Shown: positions 3,213 to 28,555, counted from the first letter of the stretch. The stretch: 64,000 nucleotides of DNA from Streptosporangiales bacterium (GCA_036378185.1 DASUWX010000012.1:2890-66889); one strand, 5' to 3'. The notes: generated by a model not told the origin, from the letters alone. Translations and numbers: made by a program.

Positions 3213-3226
3213 CGGAGGCCGGCGGG

Positions 3227-4276: not shown

Positions 4277-5341
4277 ATGCCCGGCCGGTCGAACAGCGCG
4301 CCGCCGCCGCAGCTGCGGCGTGCGACGATCGCCGACGTCGCGAAGGCGGCCGGCGTCTCGCCGTCCACGGCCTCCCGGGCGCTGAACGGCAGCGGGTACG
4401 CGGCGAAGCACGTCCGCGAGCAGGTGCGTGCCGCGGCGGAGCAGATCGGGTACGTGCCCGACGCGAACGCCCGCACCCTGCGGCAGCGCACCAGCCGGTC
4501 CGTCGGCGTCGTGATCTCGGACCTGCGCAACCCGTTCTACGCCGACCTCGCCGCCGGCGCTGAGCAACGGCTGCGCGAGGCCGGGTACTCGATGACGCTC
4601 GTGAGCGACAACGGTCTCGAGGACGAGGAACTGCGCGCGGTTCAGACGTTCGTGGCACTGCGCGTCCCCGGCGTGATCGTCACGCCGACCTCCGGCCGTG
4701 CGCTGAACGCGCTGCGGCGGCACGGCGTGCACGTCGTGCAGGCCGACCGCGTCGTCGGGCGGCCGCGCAGCGACGCGGTCCTCAGCGGCAACGAGGCGGG
4801 CGCGCGGGAGCTGACCCGGCACCTGCTCGAGCTGGGGCACCGGCGGATCGCGTTGCTGATCGACGAGACCAAGTGGACGACCGGCGCGGGTCGGCTCGCC
4901 GGCTACCGTGCGGCGCACGAGGAGCTGGGCGTGCCGGTCGACGACGAGCTGACGGCGTACGCGAGCTTCGACGTGGAGCAGGCACGGGTCGCGGCGGCGC
5001 GGCTGATCGACGCACACCGCGATCTCACCGCGCTGTTCGCGGCGAACAACGTCCTGGCACAGGCGGTCGTGCAGGAGGTGCAACAGCGCGGGTTGCGCGT
5101 CCCCGAGGACATCTCGATCGCGGCGTACGACGACGTGCCGTGGATGTCGATGGTGCGGCCCGGGCTCACCACCGTGTCGCAGCACACGGTCGAGATGGGC
5201 CGCAGGTGCGCGGACCTGCTGCTGGACCGGATGTCGGGCGACGCCGTCGGCGCGAGAGCGCGCACCGTCCACCTCGAGCCGGAGCTCAAGGTGCGCGGCT
5301 CGACCGGCAAGCCGCGTCGCGCCAAGCGTCTCCCGTCCTGA
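4277..5341 (+). CDS. LacI-family transcriptional regulator
   Basis: N-terminal HTH ATIADVAKAAGVSPSTASRALNG...YVPDANARTLR, followed by a periplasmic-binding-protein-like sugar domain (VGVVISDLRNPFYADL, AYDDVPW). Confidence 0.9.
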   Translation: MPGRSNSAPPPQLRRATIADVAKAAGVSPSTASRALNGSGYAAKHVREQVRAAAEQIGYVPDANARTLRQRTSRSVGVVISDLRNPFYADLAAGAEQRLREAGYSMTLVSDNGLEDEELRAVQTFVALRVPGVIVTPTSGRALNALRRHGVHVVQADRVVGRPRSDAVLSGNEAGARELTRHLLELGHRRIALLIDETKWTTGAGRLAGYRAAHEELGVPVDDELTAYASFDVEQARVAAARLIDAHRDLTALFAANNVLAQAVVQEVQQRGLRVPEDISIAAYDDVPWMSMVRPGLTTVSQHTVEMGRRCADLLLDRMSGDAVGARARTVHLEPELKVRGSTGKPRRAKRLPS

Positions 5342-7483: not shown

Positions 7484-8338
7484 GGACCCTCCGGCATTGC
7501 CGAGACGGGAGCGTGGCGGCGAGCGTATGCCGTCGCGCTCCCAACCGCTCACACCGCGCATGGCCCTGCGCGGGGTGTAGCGCCTCGGCGGCGCAGGCGC
7601 GTACTTCTCGATCCGTGCGTCGGGCGAGGTGCGCGGCCGTACCGTCCCAGTCATGACGAGCGTCCGATGCCCACGGGGCGGGCACCCTGCGCCGCCGCTG
7701 GCGACGACCGGTCGTGGCATGCCGAAGCTCGCTGAATGCCCGTTGTGCGGCAGCAAGGTCCCGGTGGTGGGTGGGCTGCTGGTGCAGCATCTGGCGAGGT
7801 GGCCATTCCCGGGACGGGTGCGACCGCGCCCTTAGGCGCCCTGGTGCGCGGCTACGGGCGTGCGGTCAGTGCGACACTCCCAGTCGTGCCCGGATAACCA
7901 TTCTCGACGCCTCGACCCCCGCCGCCCACGGGACTCGCTCGTCGGTGGCGTCCGGCCGGTCCTCGGCGCGGTACGTCAGTAGCGCCTCGTCGACCACGGT
8001 GAGCATGGCGAGCCGGCGACGCCGCCATTCCCGCGCCCACGCAGTCGGTAGCAACTCGATGCCGGGCTCGGTGGCGCAGCCCTGTTGTGCGGTACGCCAC
8101 TGTTGCCGGCCGTCCCCGCGGTCACCTGGCGGTCGTACGCGCATTTCGTCCCGCCGGTCGAGACGACGCAGGAACGTGTCGTGCGTGGCCTCTCACCGCC
8201 ATCGACGATCTGCTGCTCGGCTCGCCACCGAGTGCCCGCATTGTGCCCCCGAAGGCACTTCCGGCAGGTCAGTGCGTCGCAGGCTTCACCCCACTGTGCC
8301 GGTGTGAGGGGCGCCCTCAGCGGTCACGGGCGGTCCTG

Positions 8339-9259
8339 TCAACCCTTGCGTGCCTGGGTCGCGACGCCGCTGACGAAGTAGCGCTGGCCGAAGGCGAACA
8401 ACACCAGCAACGGCAGCGTCACGAGCAACGAGGCCACCATCACGTACTGGTAGTCGCCCTGGCCGCCCGCGGTGGGACTGTACTTCGTCATCGCGTACGC
8501 GATCCCCAGCGGAACCGTGTAGTTGTCGACACTGCCGGCGTTCAGGTAGATGAGGCTGCCCATCAGGTTGTTCCAGCTCGCCTGGAACTCGAACAGGAAC
8601 ACGATGATGAAGGAGGGCTTGATCAGCGGCATGGCGATGCGCCAGAACGCCTGCCAGTAGCTGGCGCCGTCGATCCGCGCCGCCTCGAACAGCTCGCCCG
8701 GCAGGCCGAGGAAGAACTGCCGCTGCAGGAAGATGTAGAACGCCGAGCCGAACAGGTTGGTGCCGAACAGCGGCACCCAGGTGCCGACCAGGCCGAAGGA
8801 CTTCCAGATGAGGTAGGTCGGGATCATGGTGACCGACGTGGGCAGCATCATCGTCCCGAGCACGAGCGCGAACAGCACGCCGCGGCCGGGGAACCGGAAG
8901 CGGGCGAACCCGTACGCCACCATCGAACTCGACACGGCGACGAGACCGGCCGCCAGGAACGCGATCGCCACGCTGTTCAACAGCCAGTGCAGCACCGGCA
9001 GTTCGTGCCAGACCTGCGCCCAGTTGCTGAGCTGGAACGTCCGCGGGATCAGCCGGTTGTCGAACACCTGCGTCTTCGGCTTGAAGCTTGCCGCGAGCAG
9101 CCAGAAGAACGGGTACATGAACAGCAGCGCGAAGGCGACGAGCACGAGGTTGACGACGATGCGCACGATCCTGCGGCCGACGCCGCGTGCGGTGTCACCC
9201 CTGCCCGGGAGCGGGGGAGCCGGCTCGGCCGTCGGCTCGAGCACGTCGGCCCTGGCCAT
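8339..9259 (-). CDS. Carbohydrate ABC transporter permease (MalG/CUT1-type)
   Basis: Multi-span membrane protein with EAA loop FEAARIDGASYWQAFWRIAMPL. ATG 9257-9259 overlaps the upstream stop (ATGA). Confidence 0.9.
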   Translation of the reverse strand: MARADVLEPTAEPAPPLPGRGDTARGVGRRIVRIVVNLVLVAFALLFMYPFFWLLAASFKPKTQVFDNRLIPRTFQLSNWAQVWHELPVLHWLLNSVAIAFLAAGLVAVSSSMVAYGFARFRFPGRGVLFALVLGTMMLPTSVTMIPTYLIWKSFGLVGTWVPLFGTNLFGSAFYIFLQRQFFLGLPGELFEAARIDGASYWQAFWRIAMPLIKPSFIIVFLFEFQASWNNLMGSLIYLNAGSVDNYTVPLGIAYAMTKYSPTAGGQGDYQYVMVASLLVTLPLLVLFAFGQRYFVSGVATQARKG

Positions 9260-10227
9260 CACTTGCCCCCCTCGTAGTAGACGAAGCGATTGCCGACCTT
9301 CACCTGGATGAAGGTGAGGATCACGAGGATGACGAACAGCAGCCACGCCATCGCCGCGGCGAACCCGAAGTTGAACTGCTGGAACGCCTGCTGGAACAGG
9401 TAGACGACGTAGAACAGCGCGGAGTCCGGCGACGCGTTGCTCTGGTCCCGCCAGAACAGCAGGTACACCTGGTCGAAGACCTGGAACGCGGCGATGGTGA
9501 GCACGATGACGTTGAAGAACAACGCGCCCGAGATCATCGGCAGCGTGACCGAGAAGAACTTGCGCAGCGGGCCGGCGCCGTCGATCGACGCCGCCTCGTA
9601 CAGGTCCGTGGGCACGTTCTTCAACGCGGCAAGGAAGATGACCATCGTGCCGGAGAGCCCCCACAGGGTGATGAGCACGATCGACGGCTTGGCCCAGGTC
9701 GGGTCGACCAGCCACTGCGGCCCGGGAATGCCGACGGCACGGAGCGCCTGGTTGACCGCGCCGGTGTTGCCGTTGAGCAGCAACAGGAACATCGACGCGG
9801 TCGCCACCATGGGTGTCATCTTCGGCAGGTAGTAGACCGTCCGGAAGAAGCCCGCGCCGCGCCCGGCCCAGTTCAGCAGCATGGCGAGGAACAGCGCGAC
9901 GATGATCTCGAGCGGCACCGCGAGCAGCGCGTAGAACAGGGTGTTGCCCAGTGAGGTGAGCACCGTCGGGTCCTCGACCAGGCGCTCGTAGTTGCTGAAC
10001 CCCACCGGCGCGACCGTGTCGGTGGCGAGGTTGTAGTTGGTGAACGAGATGACCAGGCTGTAGATCATCGTGCCCGCGGTGAAGACGAGGAACCCGATGA
10101 TCCACGGCGAGATGAACGCGAAGCCGGCCAACGCCTCGCGACGGTCGTACTTCCTGGCCCGCCGAGGCTTCGTCGCCTCGCGCACCGCCGCCTCGGCGGG
10201 CCCGTCGATCGCCGTCTTCCGCGCCAT
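9259..10227 (-). CDS. Carbohydrate ABC transporter permease (MalF/CUT1-type)
   Basis: EAA loop YEAASIDGAGPLRKFFSVTLPM, six predicted TM segments, directly downstream of the SBP gene. Confidence 0.9.
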   Translation of the reverse strand: MARKTAIDGPAEAAVREATKPRRARKYDRREALAGFAFISPWIIGFLVFTAGTMIYSLVISFTNYNLATDTVAPVGFSNYERLVEDPTVLTSLGNTLFYALLAVPLEIIVALFLAMLLNWAGRGAGFFRTVYYLPKMTPMVATASMFLLLLNGNTGAVNQALRAVGIPGPQWLVDPTWAKPSIVLITLWGLSGTMVIFLAALKNVPTDLYEAASIDGAGPLRKFFSVTLPMISGALFFNVIVLTIAAFQVFDQVYLLFWRDQSNASPDSALFYVVYLFQQAFQQFNFGFAAAMAWLLFVILVILTFIQVKVGNRFVYYEGGK

Positions 10228-10229
10228 CG

Positions 10230-11600
10230 TCAGTGCACGACGTTGTTGTACGCCCGCAACGCCCCACGTTGCGCGTCGGCGAGCGCCTGCTTGGGGCTCT
10301 TCTTGCCCAGCAGCGCGGATGCGATGGCGTTGTTCATCTCCGTCTGGATCTGCTGGCCGGCCGGCGACGCCCCCATGGTGATGCCGTCACCGACGATGTC
10401 GTAGTAGGCATTGATGGTCTGGTCGAAGCCGGGGTTGCCGCTCGACTTGACGTACTTGCTCTTGATCTCCTTGTCCGGGCCCGGAGAGCCCGTGAACAGG
10501 CCGGTGTTGACGCCGCCGTTCTTCGCGATGGTGTCGGCACGGGCCTTGCCCGCGGCCATCCAGTCGGCCTGCGAGGTGACCGTGATCGCCCAGGCGCACG
10601 CCGCCGACTTGTTCTTGGCCTTCGTCGGGATGGCGAACGACGTGCCGCCCGCGTACGTGACGGGCTTGCCGTTCTTGTCCTTGAAGGGCACCGTCTCGAT
10701 GGAGATCTTGTTCTTGAACGGGCTCAGCACGTTCGGGTACCACTGGGCGTCCACCTCGGCGCCGACCTGGTTCTTCACGTACTGGTTGTTGTCGCCGAAG
10801 AAGTCGAACGAATCGGTGAAGCTCTTCAGCTTGGCGTAGCCGCCCTGGGCGTCCGTGATCTTCTTCAGCATCTCGAGCGGGTAGACGTTGTTCGGGTTGT
10901 CGAGCGTCGGCTTCCCGTTCTTGTCGACGATCTGCCCGCCGAGACCCAGCATCCACATCTGCCACTGGCCCGTCGGCTGCGGGTCGAAGCCGAGCGTGCT
11001 CGGGACGTTGCCCTTCTGCTTGTACATCTTCTTGATGGCGGCCAGCAGCACGTCCGGCTTGGACGTGTCGATCTGGTCGCTGGTCACGCCGGCGGCGTCC
11101 ATGACCTTCTTGTTCAGAATGATCGCGGTCGGCTGGTAGAACTGCGGCACCGCCCAGATCTTGCCCTTGTACGTCACGTCGCCGAGCACGGACGGGTACC
11201 ACACGGTCTTCGGGTCGACCTTGTGGGCGGAGAAGCACTGGTCCAGCGGCATGATGAGGTTCTGCGCGGCGTAGGTGGCCACGTACTGGCGGTCCATCTG
11301 CACGATGTCGGGCACGTTCCCGCTCGCCAGCCGCGTCGTGAACTTCTGCGCGTTGAACGCCGTCTGGTCGTACTTGACGGTGACGTTCTGCTTCTTCAGC
11401 TGCTCGTCCGCGTACTTCATCCGCGCCTTGCCGACGTCGTCGGCGCTGTCGAACGCCCACGCGTTGAGCGTGCCCTTGGGCTTGGCGTTGAAGGTGGCAC
11501 CGGACGAGGGGCTCCCGCTGCTCCCGCCGGACCCGCCACATGCGGCCGCGGCGAGCAGGGGCGCGACGGCCAGGACCGCGACGACTTGCCTTCTCTTCAC
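10230..11600 (-). CDS. Extracellular sugar-binding lipoprotein (ABC family 1 SBP)
   Basis: GTG 11600 is preceded by GGAGGGGAA. Lipobox LLAAAACGGSGG. Lys/Asp-rich mature part typical of CUT1 SBPs. The longer ORF to 11858 lacks an RBS. Confidence 0.9.
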   Translation of the reverse strand: MKRRQVVAVLAVAPLLAAAACGGSGGSSGSPSSGATFNAKPKGTLNAWAFDSADDVGKARMKYADEQLKKQNVTVKYDQTAFNAQKFTTRLASGNVPDIVQMDRQYVATYAAQNLIMPLDQCFSAHKVDPKTVWYPSVLGDVTYKGKIWAVPQFYQPTAIILNKKVMDAAGVTSDQIDTSKPDVLLAAIKKMYKQKGNVPSTLGFDPQPTGQWQMWMLGLGGQIVDKNGKPTLDNPNNVYPLEMLKKITDAQGGYAKLKSFTDSFDFFGDNNQYVKNQVGAEVDAQWYPNVLSPFKNKISIETVPFKDKNGKPVTYAGGTSFAIPTKAKNKSAACAWAITVTSQADWMAAGKARADTIAKNGGVNTGLFTGSPGPDKEIKSKYVKSSGNPGFDQTINAYYDIVGDGITMGASPAGQQIQTEMNNAIASALLGKKSPKQALADAQRGALRAYNNVVH

Positions 11601-11664
11601 AGGGGGTTCCCCTCCTATGGCAACGGATTGGTTACGGCTCATCGGACCAGGCGCCGAGCCGACC

Positions 11665-11678
11665 TGGAATCGTTGCCA
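11665..11678. promoter_or_regulatory. Second LacI-type operator candidate
   Basis: The reverse complement of TGGAATCGTTGCCA is TGGCAACGATTCCA, which matches the core of the 11791-11804 site at 13 of 14 positions. It lies 65 nt upstream of SBP start 11600. Confidence 0.45.
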
Positions 11679-11787
11679 CCCGACGTTAAACCACTCGGGT
11701 GAGCTGCACAAGTGGCAGCCTTGACCTGGCCGCGACGCAGTGCTACCGGCTCCCGGGTTGCACCTCCCCGGGCGGCTGCGGTTGGAT

Positions 11788-11807
11788 GTGTGGCATCGAT
11801 TCCACAC
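11788..11807. promoter_or_regulatory. LacI-type operator candidate (20-bp near-perfect palindrome)
   Basis: GTGTGGCATCGATTCCACAC is symmetric at 18 of 20 positions with a central CG, and lies 20 nt upstream of ATG 11827. Confidence 0.55.
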
Positions 11808-11826
11808 CACCAAGGTCTCAACCCGG

Positions 11827-14301
11827 ATGATCCGCCAGGTCCTGCTCGTCCCGCACACGCACCACTACGTCGGCTACACGAACAGCCCGCGCATCGTCGA
11901 CGACCTGCACAGCAGGATCGTCGACGAGGTACTCCGGCTCTGTGCCCGCCACGACCGCCCGGGGCCGGACCGGTTCCGCTGGACGTTCGAGGTCGCGCGG
12001 CCCGTGTTGCGGTTCCTCGACCGCGCCTCGACGACGGACGCCGGCCGTCTCCGCCGGCTCGTCCGTGCCGAGCGCATCAGCGTAACGGGCGGTTATCTCA
12101 ACATGACCCAGCTGCCGTCCGCGGCCGAGCTGGACGCCGGCTACGACGCGCTCGCGGCGTTGCGGGACGCCGGGCTGCCGGTGCGCACCCAGCAGCACGG
12201 TGACGTCAACGGCCTCGCCTGGGGCAGCGTCGAGGGGATGCGGCGTGCCGGGATCGACCGGCTCCTGATGGCCCTCAACCCCGATCACGGGCGCGCGCCG
12301 TACGAGCAGCCGACGGCGTTCTGGTGGGAGGGGCAGAGCGGCGGGCGGGTGTTCGTCTGGCTCTCGACCCACTACGGGGTCGGCGAGGAGTGGGGGATCG
12401 TCGACGGCGACACCGCCCTGGCGGAGGCGAGCATCGCCGGCTTCGTCGAGCGGCTCGAGGCGCGCCCGGATTATCCGTTCGACGCGGCGCTCGTCCACGC
12501 GGCGAACGACAACCGCTGGCCGACGGCGAAACTGCTCGACGTCGTCCGGCACTGGAACGCCGCGCATCCCGAGGCGCCGATGCGTACGGCGACCGTCGAC
12601 CAGGCCCTCGACGTCGTCCAGGCGCAGGCACGAGACGCCGACCTCCCGGTCGCGAGGGGCGAATGGTCGGACTGGTGGTCGCACGGGCACGGCTCGACGG
12701 CCCGCGAGGTGGCGGTCCACCGGGAGGCACGCTCGTTCGCCCGCGCCGCGCAGACCGGGCTCGGCCTGTCGCTGCTCAGGGAGGGCGCGGCACCGGTGGC
12801 CGCGACGGCGGAGGTCATCGGGTACCGCCGCGGCCCCGTGCGGCTGCGGGACGCGGACCGGGTCGTCGCCGACCTCGCCCGTGTCGACGAGGACCTCCTG
12901 CTGTTCGGCGAGCACACGTGGGGCTCCTGGGAGACCTACCGCAGGCCGCACTCCACGTTCAGCCACTCACACTGGAACGCCAAGGCCGGCTTCGCCTACG
13001 CCGCCTACGACCTGGCCAGGGACCTCGCGATCGAGGCGATGTTCAGGCTGGCCGCGCCCGACGGCAGGGCGGGCGGTGGCGACGGCGACGGCGTCCTGGT
13101 CGTCAACCCCACCGAACGCGACCGCACCGAGCCGGTCGTCGTCGAGGTCGACGGGGCGAAGCGGCGGCGGCTGGTCGCGACGGCGCCGGCGTTCGGCGTC
13201 GCCCTGGCTCCGCCGCCCGCGGCGCCGCGGCGTCGCCGCGGCCACGAGCTCGCGCTCGGCCGGTACCGGGTGCGCGTCGACCCGTCGTCCGGCGGGGTGG
13301 CGTCACTGGTGGACGTGCGGTCGGGACGGGAGCTGGTCGACGGCGGTGCCGGGCACGGCCTCGGCGCGGTCGTCGTCGAGCGGCCGGTGGCCGGCAGCAC
13401 CCACCCGATGTTGCACGGGGACCTGCGGGCGTTCCATCCGGACACCCCCGGCCCGGAGTTCGACCGGCACGCCGCCGCCGGCGCGTCCGACGACCCACCC
13501 GAAATCGCGGAGTCGGACGGCCTCGCCGGCATCACATGGCGGTCCAGCGCGCCCGGCGTACCCGAGATCACCACCACCTTGACGCTCCATCGAGACGTCG
13601 ACGCCGTCGACCTCGAGGTGGACCTGGTCAAACCCGAGCACGCCGGGCCGGAGAGCATCTTCGTCGCGTTCCCCTTCGCCGTCGACGATCCCGTCTTCCT
13701 GCTGGAGACCGCGGGCGCGGTGTACGCGGCCGGAACCGAGCAGCTGCCCGACACGAGCAAGGACTGGTTCTCGATCCAGCACGCGGTCGGCGTCACGTCC
13801 GGCACGCACGGTGTGCTGTGGGGGAGCTTCGACGCGCCGCTCGTCCAGCTCGGCGGGTTCCACACCGGCCTGTGGGCGAGAGAGCTCGAGGTGCGCGGCG
13901 GCCACGTGAACAGCTGGCTGATGAACAACCTGCACTTCACGAACTTCCAGGCCCGGCAGGACGGCACCCGCCGGTACCGGTACCGCTTCGCCGCGACCGA
14001 GGGCCCGGTCACCCGCGACCGGGTCGCGGTGTACGGGCGCGACCTGCTCGAGCCGCTGCAGGCGCGGCGGTACACCGGTCCGGTCGAACCTGGCGGGCGC
14101 GGGTTGCGGGTGGAGCCGGCCGAACGACTGTTCGCCGAGGTCCGGCCGGTCGGTACGGCCGCGGTGCGCGTCCGGCTGCGGAACGTCGCGGATGGCCCGG
14201 TGGAAGCGGTCGTGATGTGGGACGGTGCACGGCACGGCGTCCTGGTGCCGGGGCACGGCACGGGGGACGTCGTGCTGGGGCGGCAGGGGAGGATGCGTTG
14301 A
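11827..14301 (+). CDS. Divergent GH38-like (alpha-mannosidase family) protein
   Basis: N-terminus LLVPHTHHYVGYT resembles the GH38 PHSHxDxGW motif but has Tyr where Asp is expected. ~820 aa with no signal peptide. First gene of the operon. Confidence 0.7.
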   Translation: MIRQVLLVPHTHHYVGYTNSPRIVDDLHSRIVDEVLRLCARHDRPGPDRFRWTFEVARPVLRFLDRASTTDAGRLRRLVRAERISVTGGYLNMTQLPSAAELDAGYDALAALRDAGLPVRTQQHGDVNGLAWGSVEGMRRAGIDRLLMALNPDHGRAPYEQPTAFWWEGQSGGRVFVWLSTHYGVGEEWGIVDGDTALAEASIAGFVERLEARPDYPFDAALVHAANDNRWPTAKLLDVVRHWNAAHPEAPMRTATVDQALDVVQAQARDADLPVARGEWSDWWSHGHGSTAREVAVHREARSFARAAQTGLGLSLLREGAAPVAATAEVIGYRRGPVRLRDADRVVADLARVDEDLLLFGEHTWGSWETYRRPHSTFSHSHWNAKAGFAYAAYDLARDLAIEAMFRLAAPDGRAGGGDGDGVLVVNPTERDRTEPVVVEVDGAKRRRLVATAPAFGVALAPPPAAPRRRRGHELALGRYRVRVDPSSGGVASLVDVRSGRELVDGGAGHGLGAVVVERPVAGSTHPMLHGDLRAFHPDTPGPEFDRHAAAGASDDPPEIAESDGLAGITWRSSAPGVPEITTTLTLHRDVDAVDLEVDLVKPEHAGPESIFVAFPFAVDDPVFLLETAGAVYAAGTEQLPDTSKDWFSIQHAVGVTSGTHGVLWGSFDAPLVQLGGFHTGLWARELEVRGGHVNSWLMNNLHFTNFQARQDGTRRYRYRFAATEGPVTRDRVAVYGRDLLEPLQARRYTGPVEPGGRGLRVEPAERLFAEVRPVGTAAVRVRLRNVADGPVEAVVMWDGARHGVLVPGHGTGDVVLGRQGRMR

Positions 14302-15302
14302 CGCGCGACGGGTCGGGGGACGGCGGCGAGCCGTACGTCCTCGGGTTGGACATAGGTGGCACCAAGCTGGCCGCGGGCGTGGTCACCCCGCGCGGCGAGG
14401 CGCTGTCGTTCGTCGTCGGGCCCGGTGGTTCCGGCGACGACGCGGAGTCCGGCGTCAAGCGGTTGTTCGCGCTCGGGCGCGAGGCGATGACCGCCGCCGG
14501 GGTGGAGCCGTCCCGCATCGGCGCGGTGGGCATCGGCTGCGGCGGGCCGCTCGACCCCGCACGCGGTGTCCTCGTCGCGCCGCCGCACCTGCCCGGCTGG
14601 CGCGACGTGCCGATCACCGCCTGGGCACAGCACGAGTTCGACCGGCCGGCGGTCGTCGAGAACGACGGGACGGCTGCGGCGGCGGCCGAGTTCCGGTTCG
14701 GGGCGGGCCGCGGCGTGTCCGACCTCGTCTACCTGACCGTCTCCACCGGGGTCGGCGGCGGCGCCGTCGTCGCCGGGCGGCTGTTCCGCGGCGCGGCCGG
14801 CAACGGCGGCGAGTTCGGCCACGTCACCGTCGACTGGCACGGCCGGCGCTGTGTCGGCTGCGGGCGCCGCGGCTGCCTGGAGGCGTACGCGTCCGGGACG
14901 TCGATCGCGGAGCGCGCACGCGAAGCCGTGCACGCCGGCGAGCCCAGCTCGCTGCCCGGCGGTGCCACCGCCGCCGACGTCGCCGCGGCCGCCGCCGCGG
15001 GTGACCCGCTCGCCGTGCGCATCTGGGACGAGACCACCCTGGCGCTGGGCTGCGGGCTGACGTCGATCGTGAACGTGTTCGAGCCGGAGGTCGCGGTGCT
15101 CGGCGGCGGCGTGACCGAGTCCGGCGAGCAGCTGCTCGCCCCGGTGCGGGCGCGGGTCGAGGCGGATGCGATGGCCGCCGCGGCCGAACGGGTCCGCGTC
15201 GTCCCAGCGGCGCTCGGCCGCCGGGTCGGTGTCATCGGCGCCGCCGCCGCCGTGTGGGAACGTGAGCGGGAGACCGCCGACGGGCGACGGGAGTCGACAT
15301 GA
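14298..15302 (+). CDS. ROK-family sugar kinase
   Basis: LGLDIGGTKLAAG ATP motif, ENDGTAAA, and zinc motif CVGCGRRGCLEAY. TTG 14298 overlaps the GH38-like stop (TTGA). Start codon choice is uncertain. Confidence 0.85.
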   Translation: MTRDGSGDGGEPYVLGLDIGGTKLAAGVVTPRGEALSFVVGPGGSGDDAESGVKRLFALGREAMTAAGVEPSRIGAVGIGCGGPLDPARGVLVAPPHLPGWRDVPITAWAQHEFDRPAVVENDGTAAAAAEFRFGAGRGVSDLVYLTVSTGVGGGAVVAGRLFRGAAGNGGEFGHVTVDWHGRRCVGCGRRGCLEAYASGTSIAERAREAVHAGEPSSLPGGATAADVAAAAAAGDPLAVRIWDETTLALGCGLTSIVNVFEPEVAVLGGGVTESGEQLLAPVRARVEADAMAAAAERVRVVPAALGRRVGVIGAAAAVWERERETADGRREST

Positions 15303-15862
15303 CGGAGCAGCAGATCACCGAGCACGTCGAGCTGGCCGAGCGGGTGCGCGAACTCGTCCCGCTGCTGGACGACGTGGCGGCTCGGCTGATCGGCAGCTAC
15401 GAGTCCGGCGGGCGGCTGTTCACGTTCGGGAACGGCGGATCGGCCGCGGACGCGCAGCACCTCGCGGCCGAGCTCGTCGGCAGGTACAAGAGGGACCGCC
15501 GCCCGCTGCCGGCGGCGGCGCTGTCCGTCGACCCGTCCGTCGTGTCCTGCATCGGCAACGACTACGGGTTCGACGACGTGTTCGCGCGCCAGGTGGAGGC
15601 GTTCGCGGGCCCGTCCGACATGGTCGTCGCGTTCACGACGAGCGGTAGGTCGCTGAACGTCGTCCGCGGCCTCGACGCAGCGCGGAAGCAGGGTGCGACC
15701 GCCGTGCTGTTCGGCGGCGGCGACGGCGGTCCGGCGGTCGCGCACGCCGACGTCGCGCTCGTGGTGCCGTCGTCGACGACGGCGCGCATCCAGGAGATGC
15801 ACCTGATGCTGCTGCACCTGCTGAGCGAACGCGTGGACGCGTGGGCGGCCGGCGGCGACTGA
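15299..15862 (+). CDS. SIS-domain sugar-phosphate isomerase, GmhA/DiaA-type
   Basis: FGNGGSAADAQHLAAELVGRY, CIGNDYGFDDVF and AFTTSGRS are GmhA hallmarks. ATG overlaps the ROK stop (ATGA). Confidence 0.85.
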   Translation: MTEQQITEHVELAERVRELVPLLDDVAARLIGSYESGGRLFTFGNGGSAADAQHLAAELVGRYKRDRRPLPAAALSVDPSVVSCIGNDYGFDDVFARQVEAFAGPSDMVVAFTTSGRSLNVVRGLDAARKQGATAVLFGGGDGGPAVAHADVALVVPSSTTARIQEMHLMLLHLLSERVDAWAAGGD

Positions 15863-15913: not shown

Positions 15914-18346
15914 ATGGTTGAACGCAGGCGGTTGTTGCACATGATCGGCAACGCGCACATCGACGCGGTGTGGCTCTGGCAGTGGCCGGAGGGCTACCAG
16001 GAGGTGCGCGCCACGTTCTGGTCGGCGATCCAGCGGATGGACGAGTATCCCGAGTTCGTCTTCACCTGCGACTCGGTCGCGTACCTCACCTGGGTCGAGG
16101 ACACCGATCCCGAGCTGTTCGAGGCGATCCGCAAGCGCATCGCGGACGGGCGCTGGCAGGTCGTCGGCGGCTGGTGGGTGGAGCCGGACTGCAACATCCC
16201 GTCCGGCGAGTCGTTCGTCCGGCAGGCGTTGCACGGCCAGCGCTACCTGCTGGAGCGGTTCGGCGTCGCCGCCACGGTCGGCTGCAACCTGGACCCGTTC
16301 GGCCACAACGCGCAGCTGCCGCAGCTGTTGCGCAAGGCCGGCATGGACTCCTACGTGTTCCTGCGTCCGGGTCCGCACGAGCAGTCGCTGCCGGGGCCGT
16401 ACTTCTGGTGGGAGGCGCCCGACGGCTCGCGGGTGCTGGCGTACCGGATCGCGCACGAGTACGGCAGCTCGGCGCAGGACGTCGGCTACCAGGTGGACAA
16501 GTCGCTCGCCCAACTGCCGGCCGACGAACCGGAGCTGATGGTGTTCTACGGCGTCGGCAACCACGGCGGCGGGCCGACGCGGGCGAACCTCGACAGCATC
16601 CGGAGACTGGACGCGCTGGACGGGCTGCCCTCGTTGCGGTGCAGCTCACCGCGTGCCTACTTCGACCGGCTGCTCGACCGCGGCGGCGATTTCCCGGTGC
16701 ACGCCGCCGAGCTCCAGCACCACGCCGTCGGCTGCTACTCGGCGCACTCAGGGGTCAAGCGCTGGAACCGCAGGGCGGAGAACATCCTGCAGCGTGCGGA
16801 GAAGTGGGGCGTCGTCGCGACCGTCGTGGGCGAGCTCGACTATCCGTCGGACGCGATGGCCGAGGCGTGGGAACTCGTGCTGTTCAACCAGTTCCACGAC
16901 ACTCTCGCGGGAACGGCGATCCCGTCCGCGTACGAGGACAGCAGGGACCAGTACGGGCACGCAGCCTCCGTCGGCATGTTCACGTTCAACCGCGCGATCC
17001 AGTCGCTGTCGCGCCGCGTGCGGATCCCGTACGAGTCCGACACCTCCCCGGTCGTCGTCTTCAACCCGCACCCGTGGCCCGTGCGCACCGAGGTCGAGCT
17101 GGAGTTCGGCGGCGGCTTCCCGCGGCAACGGGCCGAACTGGTGGACGACCAGGGCCGGCCGGTCGCGGTGCAGGAGGGACGCTCGCACGTCGTCGCGGCC
17201 GGGCGCCGGCGGCTCGTCTTCGCGGCCGAGCTGCCTGCGCTCGGATACCGGCTCTACCGCATCCGTGCGGCGAGCGAGCCCGCCCCGGTGCGGCACGCCG
17301 TCGACGCGCACCGGCTGGAGAACGACCACCTCGCCGTCGAGGTCGACCCCGACACCGGCGCGATCACCGTGCACGACAAGCGGATCGGCGCGGACCTCGT
17401 CGCCGGCGGCACGCACGCCGAGGTGCTCGCCGACACCTCCGACACGTGGGGCCACCGCGTGCGGAGGTACGACCGGGCGATCGGCTCGTTCCGGCCGCGG
17501 CGGCTCCGGATGGTCGAGGACGGGCCGGTGCGCTCGGTGCTGCGCGTGGAGAGCGGGTACGGGTCGTCCACGCTGGTCGAGGAGTTCGTGCTCGGGAGGG
17601 ACGCCGGCCACGTCGACGTCCGCGTCGTCGTCGACTGGCACGAGCAGATGAAGATGCTGAAGCTGCGCTTCCCGACCACGCTCGCGGACGCCCGGGCCAC
17701 GTTCGAGATCCCGTACGGGCACGTGGAACGCGCCACGAACGGCGGCGAGGAGCCGGCCCAGGCATGGGTCGACGTCACCGGCAGGCTCGGCGACGGATCG
17801 GTTGCGGGGTTCACCGTCGCCAACGACGGCAAGTACGGCCACGACGTGCGCGGTGGCGACATCGGCGTGACCTCCGTGCGCAGCCCGGCGTACGCCTGGC
17901 ACGAGCCGAAACCGCTGGACGACGACGTCCACGACTACCTCGACCAGGGCAGGCAGGAGTTCACGCTGCGGCTCATCCCGCACGCCGGCGACTGGCGCGA
18001 CGCCGGGGTCGTCCGGCGGGCGGCCGAGCTGAACCAGCCGGCGTTCCCGCTGCTGGAGTCCTACCACGACGGCGACCTTCCGCCGGACGCCTCGTTCGCC
18101 GAGGTGGACGCCGAGGCCGTGGTGCCGACGGTGTTGAAGCCCGCGGCCGACGGCAGCGGCGACATCGTGCTGCGCGCGTACGAGGCGCACGGCCGGCCCG
18201 CGCACGCGACCGTCACGCTGCGGCTGCTCGACCGCGCCGTGGAGGCGGACTTCGGGCCGGCGGAGGTGAAGACGTTCCGCATCCCGCGGGACGCCGCTCG
18301 CCCGGTCGTCGAGACCGACCTGCTCGAGCGCGAGATCCGGGAGTGA
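15914..18346 (+). CDS. GH38 alpha-mannosidase (cytoplasmic, MngB/AMS1-like)
   Basis: IGNAHIDAVWLWQW, GGWWVEPDCNIPSGESFVRQ and FYGVGNHGGGP are classic GH38 N-domain motifs. No signal peptide. Confidence 0.9.
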   Translation: MVERRRLLHMIGNAHIDAVWLWQWPEGYQEVRATFWSAIQRMDEYPEFVFTCDSVAYLTWVEDTDPELFEAIRKRIADGRWQVVGGWWVEPDCNIPSGESFVRQALHGQRYLLERFGVAATVGCNLDPFGHNAQLPQLLRKAGMDSYVFLRPGPHEQSLPGPYFWWEAPDGSRVLAYRIAHEYGSSAQDVGYQVDKSLAQLPADEPELMVFYGVGNHGGGPTRANLDSIRRLDALDGLPSLRCSSPRAYFDRLLDRGGDFPVHAAELQHHAVGCYSAHSGVKRWNRRAENILQRAEKWGVVATVVGELDYPSDAMAEAWELVLFNQFHDTLAGTAIPSAYEDSRDQYGHAASVGMFTFNRAIQSLSRRVRIPYESDTSPVVVFNPHPWPVRTEVELEFGGGFPRQRAELVDDQGRPVAVQEGRSHVVAAGRRRLVFAAELPALGYRLYRIRAASEPAPVRHAVDAHRLENDHLAVEVDPDTGAITVHDKRIGADLVAGGTHAEVLADTSDTWGHRVRRYDRAIGSFRPRRLRMVEDGPVRSVLRVESGYGSSTLVEEFVLGRDAGHVDVRVVVDWHEQMKMLKLRFPTTLADARATFEIPYGHVERATNGGEEPAQAWVDVTGRLGDGSVAGFTVANDGKYGHDVRGGDIGVTSVRSPAYAWHEPKPLDDDVHDYLDQGRQEFTLRLIPHAGDWRDAGVVRRAAELNQPAFPLLESYHDGDLPPDASFAEVDAEAVVPTVLKPAADGSGDIVLRAYEAHGRPAHATVTLRLLDRAVEADFGPAEVKTFRIPRDAARPVVETDLLEREIRE

Positions 18347-18354
18347 AACAGCGC

Positions 18355-20784
18355 ATGACGGGCCGGCTCGACGGGGACGACTGGCAGCTGCGCGGCTTCC
18401 TCGGCGACGAGTGGCGGTGGCATCTCGACAAGCCGTGGGACGCCCCCGGCTGGATGCCGGCCCGGGTGCCCGGCAGCGTGCTCGACGACCTCTGGCGCGC
18501 GGGGGAGATCCCGGACCCGTACGTCGCGAGGAACACCCTCGCGGCCGAGTGGGTGTGGCAACGGGCGTGGGTGTACCGCCGGCGGATCTCCTCTCCCGGC
18601 GACGGGAACGCGGTCCTGCGCTTCGACGGGGTCGACCACGCGGCGACCGTGTGCCTCGACGGGGACGTCGTGGCCGCGCACGAGGGCATGTTCGTGCCGT
18701 TCGAGGTCGACGTCACCGACGCGCTCGCGGACGGCGCCGAGCACCTGCTCGCCGTCGTCGTCCATCCCGCCCCCGCGAACGAGCCACAGGTCGGGGAGAC
18801 GCACCGGGTGTCGGTGCACAAGAGCCGGATGGGCTACGGCTGGGACTTCTGCCCACGCCTCGTGCACCAGGGCGTCTGGCGCCCGGTCACGCTGACGGCA
18901 TGGCGGCACGCGCGGCTCGTCGACGTCTCGGTCGGCACGATGCTGGCGGAGGATCTGGCCACCGGCTCCGTCGAGGTGGTCGCCGAGGTCGAGGGCGTGG
19001 CGGACGCCGGGCTGCGCGTGACCGTCGCCGACGGCGACACCGTGGTAGCGAGTTCGGTCGAGGACGTGCGCGTCGACGGGCGTTCCCGGGTCCGGTCGAC
19101 CCTGCCGGTCGAACGGCCCAGGCTGTGGTGGCCGAACGGAGCGGGCGAGCAGCCGCTCTACCGGGTCGGCGTCGAGCTGTCGGTGCCAGGCGTCGCTCCG
19201 GGTGCGTCCGGCACCGAGAGGTACGTGGGGTTCCGACACCTCGCGGGACTGCCGCACGAGCCGGCCGTCAACGGCGAGCGGATGTTCGTCAAGGGCTGGA
19301 ACTGGGTGCCGCTCGACGCGCTCTACGGCGTCCCGCGCCCGGAGAAGCTCGACCACCTGCTGCGCCTCGCGAAGGAGGCGAACGTCAACCTGCTGCGCGT
19401 CTGGGGCGGCGGGCTGATCGAGACGCCCGGGTTCTACGACCGCTGCGACCGGCTCGGCCTGCTCGTGTGGCAGGAGTTCGCCATGTCCAGCTCCGGCTTC
19501 GCGAGCGTGCCGTCGGACGCACCGGGCTTCGTCGACCTGATGGTGCGCGACGCGCACGCGATCGTGCCGCCGCTGCGGCATCATCCCTCGCTCGCGATGT
19601 GGTGCGGCGGCAACGAGTTGGCCGGTCCCGAGGGCCCGCTGGACGACACGACACCGGTGCTCGGTGCCTTGCGCGACGTGGTGCGCGAGCTCGACCCGGG
19701 CCGTGCCTGGCTGCCGACGTCGCCGTCGCCGCACGACGACCACGGGCCGTGGGAGCACCAGGGCGTGAACGAACACCAGCGCTGCTACGACGCCGGCACG
19801 ACGCCGCTGCACAGCGAGTTCGGCGTCGAGGGCATGACCAACCCGCGCACCCTCGACGCCGTCGTGCCCGCCGGCTCGCGCTGGCCGGCCGATCGCGACA
19901 ACCCGGTCTACGCGCACCTGGGCGCGTGGTGGAACAACGCACCGCTCGTCCGGGCGTCGTTCGGCGGCCGGCTGCACGACCTCGACACCCTCGGCAGGGC
20001 CAGCAGGTTCCTGCAGGCCGACGGGCTGCGTTACGCCGTGGAGGCCAACCGGCGCAGGGCGCCGCGGTGCGGCGGCACGCTCCCGTGGCAGTTCGACGAG
20101 TCGTACCCGAACGCCTGGTGCACTGCCGCTGTCGACCACCGCGGCGACCCCAAGCCCGCCTACCACGCCGTCCGCCGCGCGTACTCCCGCCATCACGTGA
20201 GCGCCGCGTTCGAGCGGCAGGCGTGGGCGGGCGAGTCCGCGTTCGCGGCGCGGGTGTGGGCGTGCCTGGACGCGGCCGGGCCGGCGACGGTGACCGCGCG
20301 GCTGGTCGACGTGTGGGGGATGCCGCTGGCCGATCGGACCTGGACGGTCGACCTGCCCGCCGGCGAGGCCCGGCAGCTCGGCGAGCTCACCGCCGACCTG
20401 ACCGTCTCCGGCAGCGACGTGGTCGTCCTCGACCTCTCGCTGGACGCCGGCGACGGCGGGCAGCGGAACCGGTATCTGTTCAGCCGCACGGATGACCTCG
20501 CGCCGTTGCTCGACCTCCCCCCTGCCACGGTCGACGTCGAGGCCCGGCACGGCAGCGACTCGACACGGATCCGGGCCCGGCATGTCGACGGGCCCGCCGC
20601 GCTCGGCCTCGTGTTCGCCGACGGCCGCCGGTACGACGCGCCGGGCTGGGCGGTGTTCTCGGACAACTGGCTCGACCTCCTGCCCGGGGAGTCGGCGGCG
20701 GTGGACGTCCGCTGGCGTGCCGCGGGTGACGAGCGTCTGCTCTCCCTGGACGGGTGGAACGTGACGGTGCCCGATGTCCGCTGA
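18355..20784 (+). CDS. GH2 family beta-mannosidase-like glycosidase
   Basis: ATG 18355 is in frame with ORF 15970..20784. VPGSVLDDLWRAGEIPDPY, WCGGNEL (acid/base) and HSEFGVEG (nucleophile) match the GH2 beta-mannosidase pattern. Confidence 0.85.
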   Translation: MTGRLDGDDWQLRGFLGDEWRWHLDKPWDAPGWMPARVPGSVLDDLWRAGEIPDPYVARNTLAAEWVWQRAWVYRRRISSPGDGNAVLRFDGVDHAATVCLDGDVVAAHEGMFVPFEVDVTDALADGAEHLLAVVVHPAPANEPQVGETHRVSVHKSRMGYGWDFCPRLVHQGVWRPVTLTAWRHARLVDVSVGTMLAEDLATGSVEVVAEVEGVADAGLRVTVADGDTVVASSVEDVRVDGRSRVRSTLPVERPRLWWPNGAGEQPLYRVGVELSVPGVAPGASGTERYVGFRHLAGLPHEPAVNGERMFVKGWNWVPLDALYGVPRPEKLDHLLRLAKEANVNLLRVWGGGLIETPGFYDRCDRLGLLVWQEFAMSSSGFASVPSDAPGFVDLMVRDAHAIVPPLRHHPSLAMWCGGNELAGPEGPLDDTTPVLGALRDVVRELDPGRAWLPTSPSPHDDHGPWEHQGVNEHQRCYDAGTTPLHSEFGVEGMTNPRTLDAVVPAGSRWPADRDNPVYAHLGAWWNNAPLVRASFGGRLHDLDTLGRASRFLQADGLRYAVEANRRRAPRCGGTLPWQFDESYPNAWCTAAVDHRGDPKPAYHAVRRAYSRHHVSAAFERQAWAGESAFAARVWACLDAAGPATVTARLVDVWGMPLADRTWTVDLPAGEARQLGELTADLTVSGSDVVVLDLSLDAGDGGQRNRYLFSRTDDLAPLLDLPPATVDVEARHGSDSTRIRARHVDGPAALGLVFADGRRYDAPGWAVFSDNWLDLLPGESAAVDVRWRAAGDERLLSLDGWNVTVPDVR

Positions 20785-24057: not shown

Positions 24058-24124
24058 CGTGGTGGCCTTGCTGCCCTGGTAGGGGCCACGACGCACCCAC
24101 GGGGCGGGTGCGGAAGGAGAGCCC

Positions 24125-26966: not shown

Positions 26967-27105
26967 TCAGCTCACGAGCGTCCGGCATCTGCGTTCCCGT
27001 CCGCCGACGGCCGGTAGTGCCCGGAACGAGGTCCCCGGCAGGGTTGTCCGGCAGCGGACGGCGTGGCCGAATGGAGGTGAACGGAACGCGGCACGGAGAG
27101 CGAGG

Positions 27106-28524: not shown

Positions 28525-28555
28525 CGCTCGCCGACGAGGCTGCTAGCTTGCGGCC

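Follow-up and report, generated by a model that had tools for sequence, protein, structure and literature searches.

A GmhA-like isomerase tied to a ROK kinase and an α-mannosidase probably also feeds mannose into glycolysis

Results

The analyzed window, a 64,000-nucleotide stretch of DNA from a Streptosporangiales bacterium, contains an operon in which a single-SIS isomerase of the GmhA family (P0001) is encoded between a ROK-family sugar kinase and a GH38 α-mannosidase. In the best explanation of this arrangement, to which we assign a probability of about 0.5, P0001 would be a GmhA-type isomerase recruited as a catabolic mannose-6-phosphate (Man-6-P) isomerase, while still keeping sedoheptulose-7-phosphate activity. 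The operon and its surroundings comprise the following features:

1–1452 (cut by the window edge), plus strand: MBL-fold protein (Pfam Lactamase_B)
1688–3118, plus strand: partner of the MBL-fold protein, a conserved locus companion
4277–5341, plus strand: LacI-family regulator (Pfam LacI and Peripla_BP_3), kept in orthologous loci
8339–11858, minus strand: divergent ABC importer, with substrate-binding protein (10230–11858) and permeases (9259–10227 and 8339–9277)
11740–14301, plus strand: P0003, divergent GH38-like protein, 853 aa (Pfam Glyco_hydro_38N, E = 3.9e-8)
14298–15302, plus strand: P0002, ROK-family sugar kinase, translationally coupled to the SIS gene
15299–15862, plus strand: P0001, GmhA-family single-SIS isomerase (SIS_2 and TIGR00441 matches)
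15914–18346, plus strand: P0004, cytoplasmic GH38 α-mannosidase, Ams1/MAN2C1-like, 810 aa (four GH38 Pfam domains)
18411–20495, plus strand: 694-aa protein, probable divergent GH2 β-mannosidase-like hydrolase (ESM Atlas lead only)
20774–22687, plus strand: 637-aa protein, GH76/GH127-like with an (α/α)6 fold according to language-model features and structure prediction (lead only)
22716–24057, plus strand: 447-aa protein of the same operon, a high-GC3 ORF with no family match
24083–25657, plus strand: FAD_oxidored-family protein, encoded at the end of the operon (Pfam PF12831, E = 1.2e-93)

The 334-aa kinase, in which the HTH domain is absent, starts at a TTG codon overlapping the stop of the GH38-like gene. 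The ATG of the SIS gene sits within the kinase stop codon (ATGA), as an earlier sequence-only reading of this DNA had described. The GC3 of the SIS gene (0.94) is usual for a genuine gene in this 72% GC genome; its 187-aa product includes GNGGSAADAQHLAAEL and CIGNDYGFDDVF. P0002 belongs to the ROK family (Pfam ROK, E = 2.5e-58; ROK_glcA_fam, 185.7 bits), with the glucokinases 3VOV and 3VGK as its closest solved structures, whereas those closest to P0004 are Ams1-type α-mannosidases. Both permeases of the importer match Pfam BPD_transp_1, and the binding protein has weak NgcE/MalE-like matches. The 694-aa protein, which has no Pfam or NCBIfam match, yielded an ESM Atlas feature score of 0.97 to β-mannosidase/GH2 clusters, and the Pfam-negative 637-aa protein a score of 0.98, with TM values of 0.89–0.95, to GH76/GH127-like clusters; we treat both matches as leads only.

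P0001 has the sequence features of GmhA

P0001 shares with GmhA (EC 5.3.1.28; 1TK9, 1X92, 2I22, and 2X3Y) the architecture of a single SIS domain in ~190 aa (Pfam SIS_2, E = 2.6e-18, residues 17–135; SIS, residues 103–164) and is ~50% identical to solved members, such as 1TK9 and 1X92. Its score against the NCBIfam gmhA model TIGR00441 (169.8 bits, E = 4e-50) lies below the cut-off of 209.45. Across the 401 genomes of the class, no GmhA-family gene reaches this value, not even those in heptose clusters, which score about 120–190 bits. P0001 scores in the same way as canonical actinobacterial GmhAs.

The catalytic residues H54, E58, Q165, and H173 are kept in P0001 and across its clade, as are the phosphate loop T113-T114-S115-G-x-S118 and N45, G47, and S48. 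We take the E. coli GmhA counterparts of the four catalytic residues, in numbering and zinc-ligand roles, to be H61, E65, Q172, and H180, and the zinc ligands of P0001 presumably correspond to those in the B. pseudomallei GmhA structure. The zinc, substrate, and phosphate residues of P0001 match those of GmhA, residue roles having been described for the M. tuberculosis enzyme (N53, G55, E66, S121–S126, and Q173; PMC7705670). P0001 is not a diverged GmhA: the clade is the same as heptose-linked GmhAs at N45, G47, S48, H54, E58, N87, D88, T114, S115, S118, Q165, H168, and H173, and the comparison with these GmhAs revealed no residue change towards a shorter substrate. T42, C84, F112, and T113, located near binding loops, are typical of the clade but present in heptose-linked fusion proteins too, so that the sole clade-wide signature is the C-terminal W182-A183 (DAWAAG motif).

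Other assignments of P0001 were rejected. DiaA, for which the substitutions are listed in PMC7705670, is incompatible with the retained E58 and with a score of 107.6 bits against NF008138 (cut-off 352); a class I or II cupin phosphomannose isomerase (PMI) would require a PMI match, and none was obtained in Pfam or NCBIfam; and the PGI/PMI type of SIS protein does not agree with a 187-aa single-SIS protein for which every best match is a GmhA or DiaA.

The ROK–SIS–GH38 linkage is conserved

Among 21 other loci with orthologues of 58–91% identity (from Streptomyces, Wenjunlia, Actinophytocola, and genomes of five family codes), 19 have the SIS gene immediately upstream of GH38, and in 15 of them, the ROK gene directly precedes SIS. 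The SIS–GH38 adjacency recurs in 45 of 63 metagenome loci, namely, GH38-alignment matches having upstream DNA, with the ROK gene present as well in 40. The coupling extends to gene fusions: ROK::SIS proteins, the closest longer relatives of P0001 (52–71% identity), form more than 35 clusters, and four SIS::GH38 fusions were found. Fusions to domains of the heptose pathway (PfkB, cytidylyltransferase, HAD, GT4, and GT9) start lower in the list of relatives, mostly at 45–59% identity. A Chloroflexota contig carries a ROK::SIS fusion directly upstream of GH38, and the coupling is kept across several actinobacterial families and the Chloroflexota. This linkage is not due to chance, and the coupling of the isomerase to a ROK kinase and to mannosidases that had been proposed from this operon is real; our literature search found no paper describing the ROK–SIS–GH38 arrangement.

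Other genes of the locus recur as well. The same ABC importer trio comes before ROK–SIS–GH38 in most orthologous loci, and homologues of the 694-aa protein follow the GH38 gene in most of them; homologues of the 637-aa protein recur in these loci, and those of the FAD_oxidored protein are found near several. P0003, the first gene of the operon here, likewise has homologues in orthologous loci, where they lie on the opposite strand. The MBL-fold protein and its partner have homologues flanking loci L115 and L116, the former additionally at L117–L127 and L140. In Streptomyces, the locus additionally includes NagB and a BadF-type GlcNAc kinase, as separate genes.

Phylogenetic analysis is in line with the gene neighborhoods. 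In a FastTree phylogeny of 398 SIS domains, 62 of the 65 ROK/GH38-linked sequences fall into one clade, which contains none of the 130 heptose-linked sequences. IQ-TREE places P0001 in a 17-row clade, all rows of which are ROK/GH38-linked (SH-aLRT 97). Judging from these trees, the ROK/GH38-linked sequences are a clade of their own inside the GmhA family, separated by a short branch. In contrast to GmhAs of same-order relatives, which sit between GT4 and PfkB/CTP-transferase genes, members of the core clade of P0001 never adjoin hldE, gmhB, or GT9. The relatives of the gene sit with mannosidases rather than with heptose genes, the association that, according to the sequence-only reading, would speak against a mannose role. 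Furthermore, of the 401 genomes from the class, 15 contain the SIS clade and 16 the GH38 orthologue (this genome is counted in each), and 13 of the 14 other SIS-clade genomes carry both.

An AGE-family enzyme replaces the ROK–SIS pair

In three otherwise orthologous loci, those of genome G205 (L138), the Logan contig L140, and the metagenome locus L209, an AGE-family enzyme (PF07221, E = 1e-104) fills the slot preceding GH38 in place of ROK and SIS. L140 matches gene for gene, in the order MBL, LacI, GH38-like, substrate-binding protein, permease, permease, the exchanged slot, and GH38. The sole NCBIfam match of the AGE enzyme is to D-mannose isomerase (NF051846), at 422 bits, below the equivalog cut-off of 600. 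A small PRK-family kinase follows it in L140, the only one of the three swap loci with this gene, and AGE::PRK-kinase fusions exist. The AGE enzyme thus appears interchangeable in function with the ROK–SIS pair, and the swap fits a mannose-to-fructose-phosphate role.

Carrier genomes encode ManA, and some contain heptose clusters

The sequence-only reading had noted that the operon has no cupin PMI. This holds for the SIS slot, in which no cupin PMI was found in any locus examined, but not for the genome, which encodes a cupin class I ManA on a separate contig, C169 (TIGR00218, 221.9 bits; cut-off 116.2). ManA was likewise matched in all 14 other carrier genomes, the score exceeding the family cut-off in 13. 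The SIS enzyme is therefore not required to close the pathway, and the argument that the operon needs it for want of a cupin PMI falls.

The claim that no heptose genes are nearby stands: no hldE-, gmhB-, or GT9-like genes were identified in the window, nor any above threshold in this 79%-complete genome. No ADP-heptose pathway was found in eight of the 14 other carriers (no hldE). Four genomes (G059, G122, G336, and G380), however, contain ADP-heptose clusters that are complete except for gmhA, and these genomes have no GmhA homologue other than the clade SIS protein. By comparison, of the 86 genomes that are hldE-positive but lack the clade SIS, 85 have a GmhA-family gene from outside the clade. 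This distribution indicates that sedoheptulose-7-phosphate isomerization is probably kept, and P0001, too, could probably still provide ADP-heptose clusters with GmhA activity.

Discussion

The operon would serve the cytoplasmic use of mannosides, such as N-glycan or mannan oligosaccharides. Oligosaccharides would be taken up by the ABC importer and degraded by the GH38 enzymes and other glycosidases to free mannose, which the ROK kinase would phosphorylate to Man-6-P. P0001, a putative zinc-dependent aldose-ketose isomerase catalyzing the second step of this two-enzyme module, would then convert Man-6-P to fructose-6-phosphate (Fru-6-P) by way of the C1/C2 enediol chemistry that GmhA also uses on its manno-configured heptose-7-phosphate. 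The 7-phosphate of D-glycero-D-manno-heptose is the C7 homologue of Man-6-P, and sedoheptulose-7-phosphate that of Fru-6-P. We infer these substrates for both enzymes from the gene order, fusions, phyletic coupling, and module swap; in particular, the conserved order, the fusions, the separate clade, and the AGE swap support the route from mannose through Man-6-P to Fru-6-P. The mannose-centered context, with an Ams1-like GH38, a glucokinase-type ROK, and the β-mannosidase-like and GH76/GH127-like neighbor leads, also counts for a mannose role, as does the fact that no ADP-heptose pathway to serve was found here or in eight of the 14 other carriers.

Comparable logic is known from Bacillus subtilis, in which a mannan operon includes gmuE (ROK kinase) and gmuF (cupin class I PMI). 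In both cases, a ROK kinase and a Man-6-P isomerase, predicted in ours, would be encoded beside glycosidases and an importer, but here a GmhA homologue occupies the slot of the cupin enzyme. PMIs of the PGI/PMI type are roughly 300-aa, metal-independent proteins, whereas P0001 is of the 187-aa GmhA type and matches no PGI/PMI model. These enzymes, the archaeal PGI/PMIs and Dehalococcoides DmPMI, belong to the PGI superfamily, bear the archaeal PGI/PMI signature motifs, and are SIS-fold rather than cupin Man-6-P isomerases (PMC4720418), a precedent for a SIS-fold enzyme with this activity in a bacterium. The AGE D-mannose isomerase (YihS-type) has an unrelated fold, an (α/α)6 barrel, and uses the free, not yet phosphorylated sugar, whereas the SIS enzyme would act after phosphorylation.

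The main rival, which we regard as unlikely, is that P0001 is a genuine, specific GmhA run catabolically. The glycosidases would free D-glycero-D-manno-heptose, the ROK kinase would phosphorylate it at O7, and the SIS enzyme would produce sedoheptulose-7-phosphate for the pentose-phosphate pathway, the same enzyme supplying any ADP-heptose cluster present. An active site identical to that of canonical GmhAs and the four gmhA-less heptose clusters are in keeping with such salvage, as are an outlying ROK::SIS fusion adjoining an HldE-like PfkB kinase and a HAD hydrolase and the metagenome locus L220, where hldE-like genes lie 3–5 kb upstream of ROK–SIS–GH38. The surrounding enzymes point elsewhere, however: the GH38 protein is Ams1-like, its neighbors look β-mannosidase-like and GH76/GH127-like, and, to our knowledge, all characterized members of the families to which the locus glycosidases belong act on mannosides. 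The NagB and BadF-type GlcNAc kinase of the Streptomyces loci suggest N-glycan-like substrates, the swapped-in AGE enzyme is nearest to D-mannose isomerase, and the carriers devoid of hldE further argue against salvage. We know of no described heptosidase or heptose catabolic pathway, and none was found in the literature searched.

It is improbable that the kinase and the isomerase act on an amino sugar, an N-acetylhexosamine, or another manno- or altro-configured hexose, with the SIS enzyme isomerizing the phosphate of that sugar instead of Man-6-P or heptose-7-phosphate. Specificity varies widely among ROK kinases, and P0002 reaches no NCBIfam equivalog cut-off; several proteins of the locus have no assigned family; and actinomycete SIS enzymes can have unexpected activities, as exemplified by NagS, a GlcNAc-6-phosphate dehydratase (PMC12680351). 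Yet the zinc, catalytic, and phosphate residues of P0001 are as in a GmhA-type ketose/manno-aldose isomerase, its tightest and most conserved partner, gene fusions included, is the GH38 α-mannosidase, and the GlcNAc-specific genes are separate where present. Finally, an ordinary biosynthetic GmhA with no functional tie to the kinase or mannosidase, making heptose-7-phosphate for some heptose-containing product, would agree with the database annotation (D-sedoheptulose 7-phosphate isomerase) and the fully conserved GmhA residues but is very unlikely given the adjacency kept at dozens of loci in two phyla, the repeated ROK and GH38 fusions, the matching distribution, and the finding of no heptose kinase, phosphatase, or nucleotidyltransferase in this genome and eight other carriers.

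The catabolic Man-6-P reading of P0001 originally put forward is thus strengthened by the mannoside linkage and the AGE swap and tempered by the presence of ManA and the unchanged GmhA residues. E. coli manA mutants fail to grow on mannose despite having gmhA, so that a canonical GmhA is not obviously a source of PMI activity in vivo. Further points against the mannose reading are the short branch leading to the clade, the want of a cupin PMI in the same slot at any locus examined, the score of the AGE enzyme below its equivalog cut-off, and the hldE-like genes near one outlying ROK::SIS fusion and in L220. Together, the unchanged catalytic, zinc, and phosphate residues, the ubiquity of ManA among the carriers, and the four heptose-cluster genomes argue against a clear-cut switch in function. 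The ancestral sedoheptulose-7-phosphate activity was most likely not lost, and P0001, in this reading a dual-substrate GmhA and not a specialized new PMI, is tied to a ROK kinase and an α-mannosidase and probably also feeds mannose into glycolysis.

Organization of the operon

The gene for P0001, a 187-aa GmhA-family SIS protein, is embedded in an operon that also encodes a ROK kinase (P0002), a GH38-like protein (P0003), and a GH38 alpha-mannosidase (P0004). The window has a GC content of 72% and is located on contig C12 of an actinomycete assembly that is 79% complete.

Genes of the operon and its flanks in the window
11740-14301, + strand, GH38-like protein (P0003), first gene of the operon
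14298-15302, + strand, ROK kinase (P0002), operon gene
15299-15862, + strand, GmhA-like SIS protein (P0001), operon gene
15914-18346, + strand, GH38 alpha-mannosidase (P0004), operon gene
18411-24057, + strand, three Pfam-negative proteins, between the GH38 and FAD_oxidored genes
ending at 25657, + strand, FAD_oxidored-family protein, end of the operon
upstream, - strand, divergent ABC importer (one binding protein and two permeases)
further upstream, beyond the importer, LacI regulator and MBL-fold protein

As described in the sequence-only reading, the SIS start codon lies inside the ROK stop (ATGA), and both motifs quoted there are present in P0001. The three consecutive genes at 18411-24057, coding for proteins of 694, 637, and 447 aa, have no match in Pfam or NCBIfam and may represent unclassified glycoside hydrolase families. 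As leads only, ESM Atlas language-model features suggest that the 694-aa protein is a divergent GH2 beta-mannosidase-like protein and the 637-aa protein a GH76/GH127-like barrel. Just downstream of the sugar locus (26956-29212) lie genes for a homologue of the 56-kDa selenium-binding protein SBP56 (E 6e-181) and, after it, a mycothiol-dependent protein with an MDMPI_N domain.

Linkage of the SIS gene to the ROK kinase and GH38 mannosidase genes

Five lines of evidence show that the link of the SIS gene to ROK and GH38 is real. The genome synteny set consisted of eight contexts of 71-79% identical homologues, taken from gene calls, and 14 from further genomes of the class. Among the 21 distinct non-window loci, the SIS gene lies directly upstream of the GH38 orthologue in 19 and is itself directly preceded by the ROK gene in 15, with the importer, LacI, and MBL genes usually surrounding these loci as they do in the window; in one genome (G284), ROK and GH38 are neighbors with no gene between them. 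In metagenomes, a scan with the GH38 alignment as seed yielded 63 loci with usable upstream DNA. In 45 of these, SIS immediately precedes GH38, with ROK also present in 40 of the 45; in two others, SIS lies just downstream of GH38. Neither the 63 metagenome loci nor the genome loci have a cupin phosphomannose isomerase (PMI) in the slot before GH38. The proposed coupling of the SIS protein to the kinase and the mannosidase is well supported, and the same holds for its catabolic role.

At the edges of orthologous loci, genes for an FGGY kinase and a DeoC/LacD-type aldolase recur (L006/L007, 17776-20318; L113, 18045-20633; L115, 17933-20187), joined once, in L116, by an OtnK-like four-carbon acid kinase. 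None of these genes occurs in the window; their recurrence may point to an additional product, a small sugar or polyol, from the same substrate.

The clade of ROK/GH38-linked SIS sequences is represented in 15 of the 401 genomes of the class sample and the GH38 orthologue in 16, the window genome being counted in both; 13 of the other genomes contain both. Three other genomes of the window's genus and a family relative (G001-G004) gave no GmhA-family match at E ≤ 1e-10, and the distribution as a whole marks the locus as an accessory, patchily distributed island. Orthologues are nevertheless present in Chloroflexota and in actinobacterial families that are only distantly related, and horizontal spread of the locus is suggested.

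P0001 genuinely belongs to the GmhA structural family

P0001 matches the Pfam SIS_2 and NCBIfam gmhA models, is ~50% identical to solved GmhA structures, and has counterparts of the zinc, substrate, and phosphate residues of GmhA (N45, G47, S48, H54, E58, Q165, H173, and the T113-T114-S115-G-x-S118 loop). The zinc ligands are assigned after the GmhA structure of B. pseudomallei. Most of the residue roles are taken from the literature on GmhA (PMC7705670). The TIGR00441 score of P0001 (169.8 bits against a cut-off of 209.45) need not be a sign of divergence: the GmhA-family genes found in 152 of the 401 genomes of the class, including those in heptose clusters, all remain below this cut-off. 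The divergence from GmhA implied by the sequence-only reading is not supported, given that the active-site residues are the same in the clade and in heptose-linked GmhAs; a diagnostic active-site difference between the two groups was looked for and none was found. Four residues considered as diagnostic of the clade (T42, C84, F112, and T113) occur in heptose-linked fusion proteins as well, and the sole clade-wide signature is the C-terminal W182-A183 (DAWAAG).

A second glycosidase-SIS-ROK trio is present in the window's genome on contig C179 (L002), comprising a GH100/MGH1-like (alpha/alpha)6 hydrolase (44-1351), a divergent GmhA-like SIS protein (1417-2022; 73 bits), and a NanK-like ROK kinase (2019-2906), in that order. 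This SIS protein differs in having G47->A, E58->D, T114->A, and Q165->E replacements and an insertion.

Domain fusions and phylogeny

Among relatives longer than P0001, the closest are fusions of ROK and SIS (ROK::SIS), which form >35 clusters with 52-71% identity, with named sources including Virgisporangium, Mangrovihabitans, Paractinoplanes, Kribbellaceae, and Chloroflexota; on a Limnocylindrales contig, a ROK::SIS gene is directly followed by GH38. Four SIS::GH38 fusions were identified as well. Relatives fused to heptose-pathway domains, namely PfkB (HldE domain I), cytidylyltransferase (HldE domain II), HAD, GT4, and GT9, rank lower, mostly at 45-59% identity. In the scan of genome contigs with P0001, the matches listed were mostly canonical GmhAs of other phyla (41-57% identity), which served solely as an outgroup and as heptose-context labels.

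In a FastTree phylogeny of 398 SIS domains, each labelled by fusion partner or neighbors, 62 of the 65 ROK/GH38-linked sequences group in a single 103-row clade (SH-like support 87), from which all 130 heptose-linked sequences are absent. Under LG+C20, IQ-TREE run on 70 thinned rows places P0001 within a 17-row clade (SH-aLRT 97) composed solely of ROK/GH38-linked rows. A short stem branch leads to the clade, which is nested within the heptose-linked GmhAs. Outside the core clade are the ROK::SIS fusions P0383, P0359, P0170, and P0229 and one Treponema locus. P0001 belongs to a distinct GmhA subfamily, with a cytosolic alpha-mannosidase and a ROK kinase as its selective context.

The outlying fusion P0359 directly follows an HldE-like PfkB kinase and a HAD hydrolase in L144 (7145-10557), with an AraA-like isomerase and RhaM nearby; this is a different setting for the ROK-GmhA pairing and may be heptose-related. 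The metagenome contig L220 (263-2679 and 5348-9517) carries HldE-like genes, for PfkB and CTP-transferase, at a distance of 3-5 kb upstream from ROK-SIS-GH38.

Mannose as the likely substrate

In the best-supported mechanism, to which we assign a probability of about 0.5, the ROK kinase would convert mannose to Man-6-P and the SIS enzyme would convert Man-6-P to Fru-6-P, while keeping sedoheptulose-7-P activity alongside. The nearest relatives of P0004 are cytosolic alpha-mannosidases of the Ams1/MAN2C1 type, and those of P0002 are glucokinase-type hexokinases. The Streptomyces versions of the locus additionally carry GH2, GH1, and GH4, a BadF-type kinase, and NagB, which is suggestive of N-glycan-like substrates.

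The strongest piece of evidence for mannose is a module swap. Three loci have an AGE-family enzyme, rather than ROK and SIS, in the slot that precedes the orthologous GH38 gene.

Loci with an AGE-family enzyme in place of ROK and SIS
L138 (genome G205), 2118-3497, - strand
L140 (Logan contig), 8001-9919
L209 (metagenome locus), 2-514

L140 preserves the full architecture (MBL / LacI / GH38-like / SBP / permease / permease / [X] / GH38, with X denoting the slot), and the visible part of L138 (MBL / LacI / [X] / GH38) agrees with the ROK+SIS loci; the visible part of L209 is limited to [X] / GH38 and the next gene. The AGE enzyme matches PF07221 at E 1e-104, and its sole NCBIfam match is to the D-mannose isomerase NF051846 (422 bits; cut-off 600). 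The next gene in L140 encodes a small PRK-family kinase; AGE and PRK-family kinase genes also lie side by side in a Microlunatus genome, and three protein clusters (P0398, P0404, and P0407) are fusions of the two. This isomerase and small-kinase module appears to be uncharacterised. Exchange of a kinase-then-isomerase pair for an isomerase-then-kinase pair is what would be expected if each pair yields a ketose phosphate from the released aldose. By itself, the swap does not separate C6 from C7 sugars, but the surrounding mannose-specific families do. A specific GmhA acting in a so far undescribed heptose salvage route is an unlikely reading, and activity of the SIS enzyme on another sugar phosphate is somewhat less likely again.

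The original missing-PMI argument is not supported: cupin class I ManA is matched in the window genome and in all 14 other genomes carrying a clade SIS (above the family cut-off in 13 of the 14), and a search among these 14 for carriers devoid of ManA found none.

Probable retention of heptose chemistry

HldE domain II is encoded in 91 of the 401 class genomes, of which 90 also have a GmhA-family gene; in roughly 76 of the 90, it is no more than about 2 kb away from hldE, as judged by comparison of two tables. (Four unpublished genomes, G045, G070, G074, and G081, are counted in the class-sample tallies, but the argument holds without them.) hldE and the clade SIS occur together in five genomes, and in four of these, representing three families (G059, G122, G336, and G380), the clade SIS is the only GmhA homologue. 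The heptose clusters of G122 (L131), G380 (L133), and G059 (L134) have the order GT9-GT4-PfkB-CTP-transferase without gmhA, with a second GT9 following in G122. In the relative G019 (L135), gmhA is located between GT4 and PfkB and is exactly the gene missing from the three clusters. In G336 (L132), two GT9 genes adjoin the PfkB/CTP-transferase pair, and gmhA is absent. The simplest reading of these gene contents is that the clade enzyme would still make heptose-7-P, so that the cluster copy of gmhA became dispensable. Conversely, hldE was undetected in eight of the 14 other carriers and in the window genome (79% complete), and hence the enzyme must have a role outside ADP-heptose synthesis. 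That the SIS protein is a passenger biosynthetic GmhA is very improbable.

Discussion

GmhA is regarded as a one-pathway enzyme, serves as an annotation marker of heptose and LPS biosynthesis, and has attracted work as an antibiotic-adjuvant target. We put at somewhat below even odds a broader proposal, in which soil bacteria widely share a mannoside pathway whose physiological Man-6-P isomerase would be a zinc-dependent, single-SIS GmhA-type enzyme, a further structural class of PMI, often fused to a ROK mannokinase, dual-specific, and in some genomes the sole sedoheptulose-7-P isomerase for ADP-heptose synthesis. Of the initial idea of GmhA as a Man-6-P isomerase, the coupling and the catabolic role are well supported, but the missing-PMI argument and the implied divergence from GmhA are not. 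The SIS-fold PMIs on record, the archaeal PGI/PMI enzymes and DmPMI of Dehalococcoides, belong to the PGI superfamily rather than to GmhA (PMC4720418), in contrast to P0001, a member of the GmhA family. NagS of Streptomyces is a MurQ-like SIS enzyme that is unrelated to P0001. A literature search found no paper on a GmhA-type PMI, a ROK::GmhA fusion, ROK/SIS/GH38 loci, or heptose catabolism.

The analysis delineates a large, well-delimited GmhA subfamily in Actinomycetota and Chloroflexota that is tied, up to gene fusion, to a hexokinase-type ROK kinase and a cytosolic alpha-mannosidase and that occurs also in genomes without a detectable heptose pathway. The four genomes that seemingly have to rely on the clade SIS alone for GmhA function are a natural test case for dual specificity. 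If Man-6-P is indeed turned over, the subfamily would represent a new structural solution for phosphomannose isomerase and a clear case of enzyme recruitment across C7/C6 sugar chemistry without active-site change. Many automatic annotations and metabolic models would then need correction, and thousands of database entries for 'D-sedoheptulose 7-phosphate isomerase' would need a second function.
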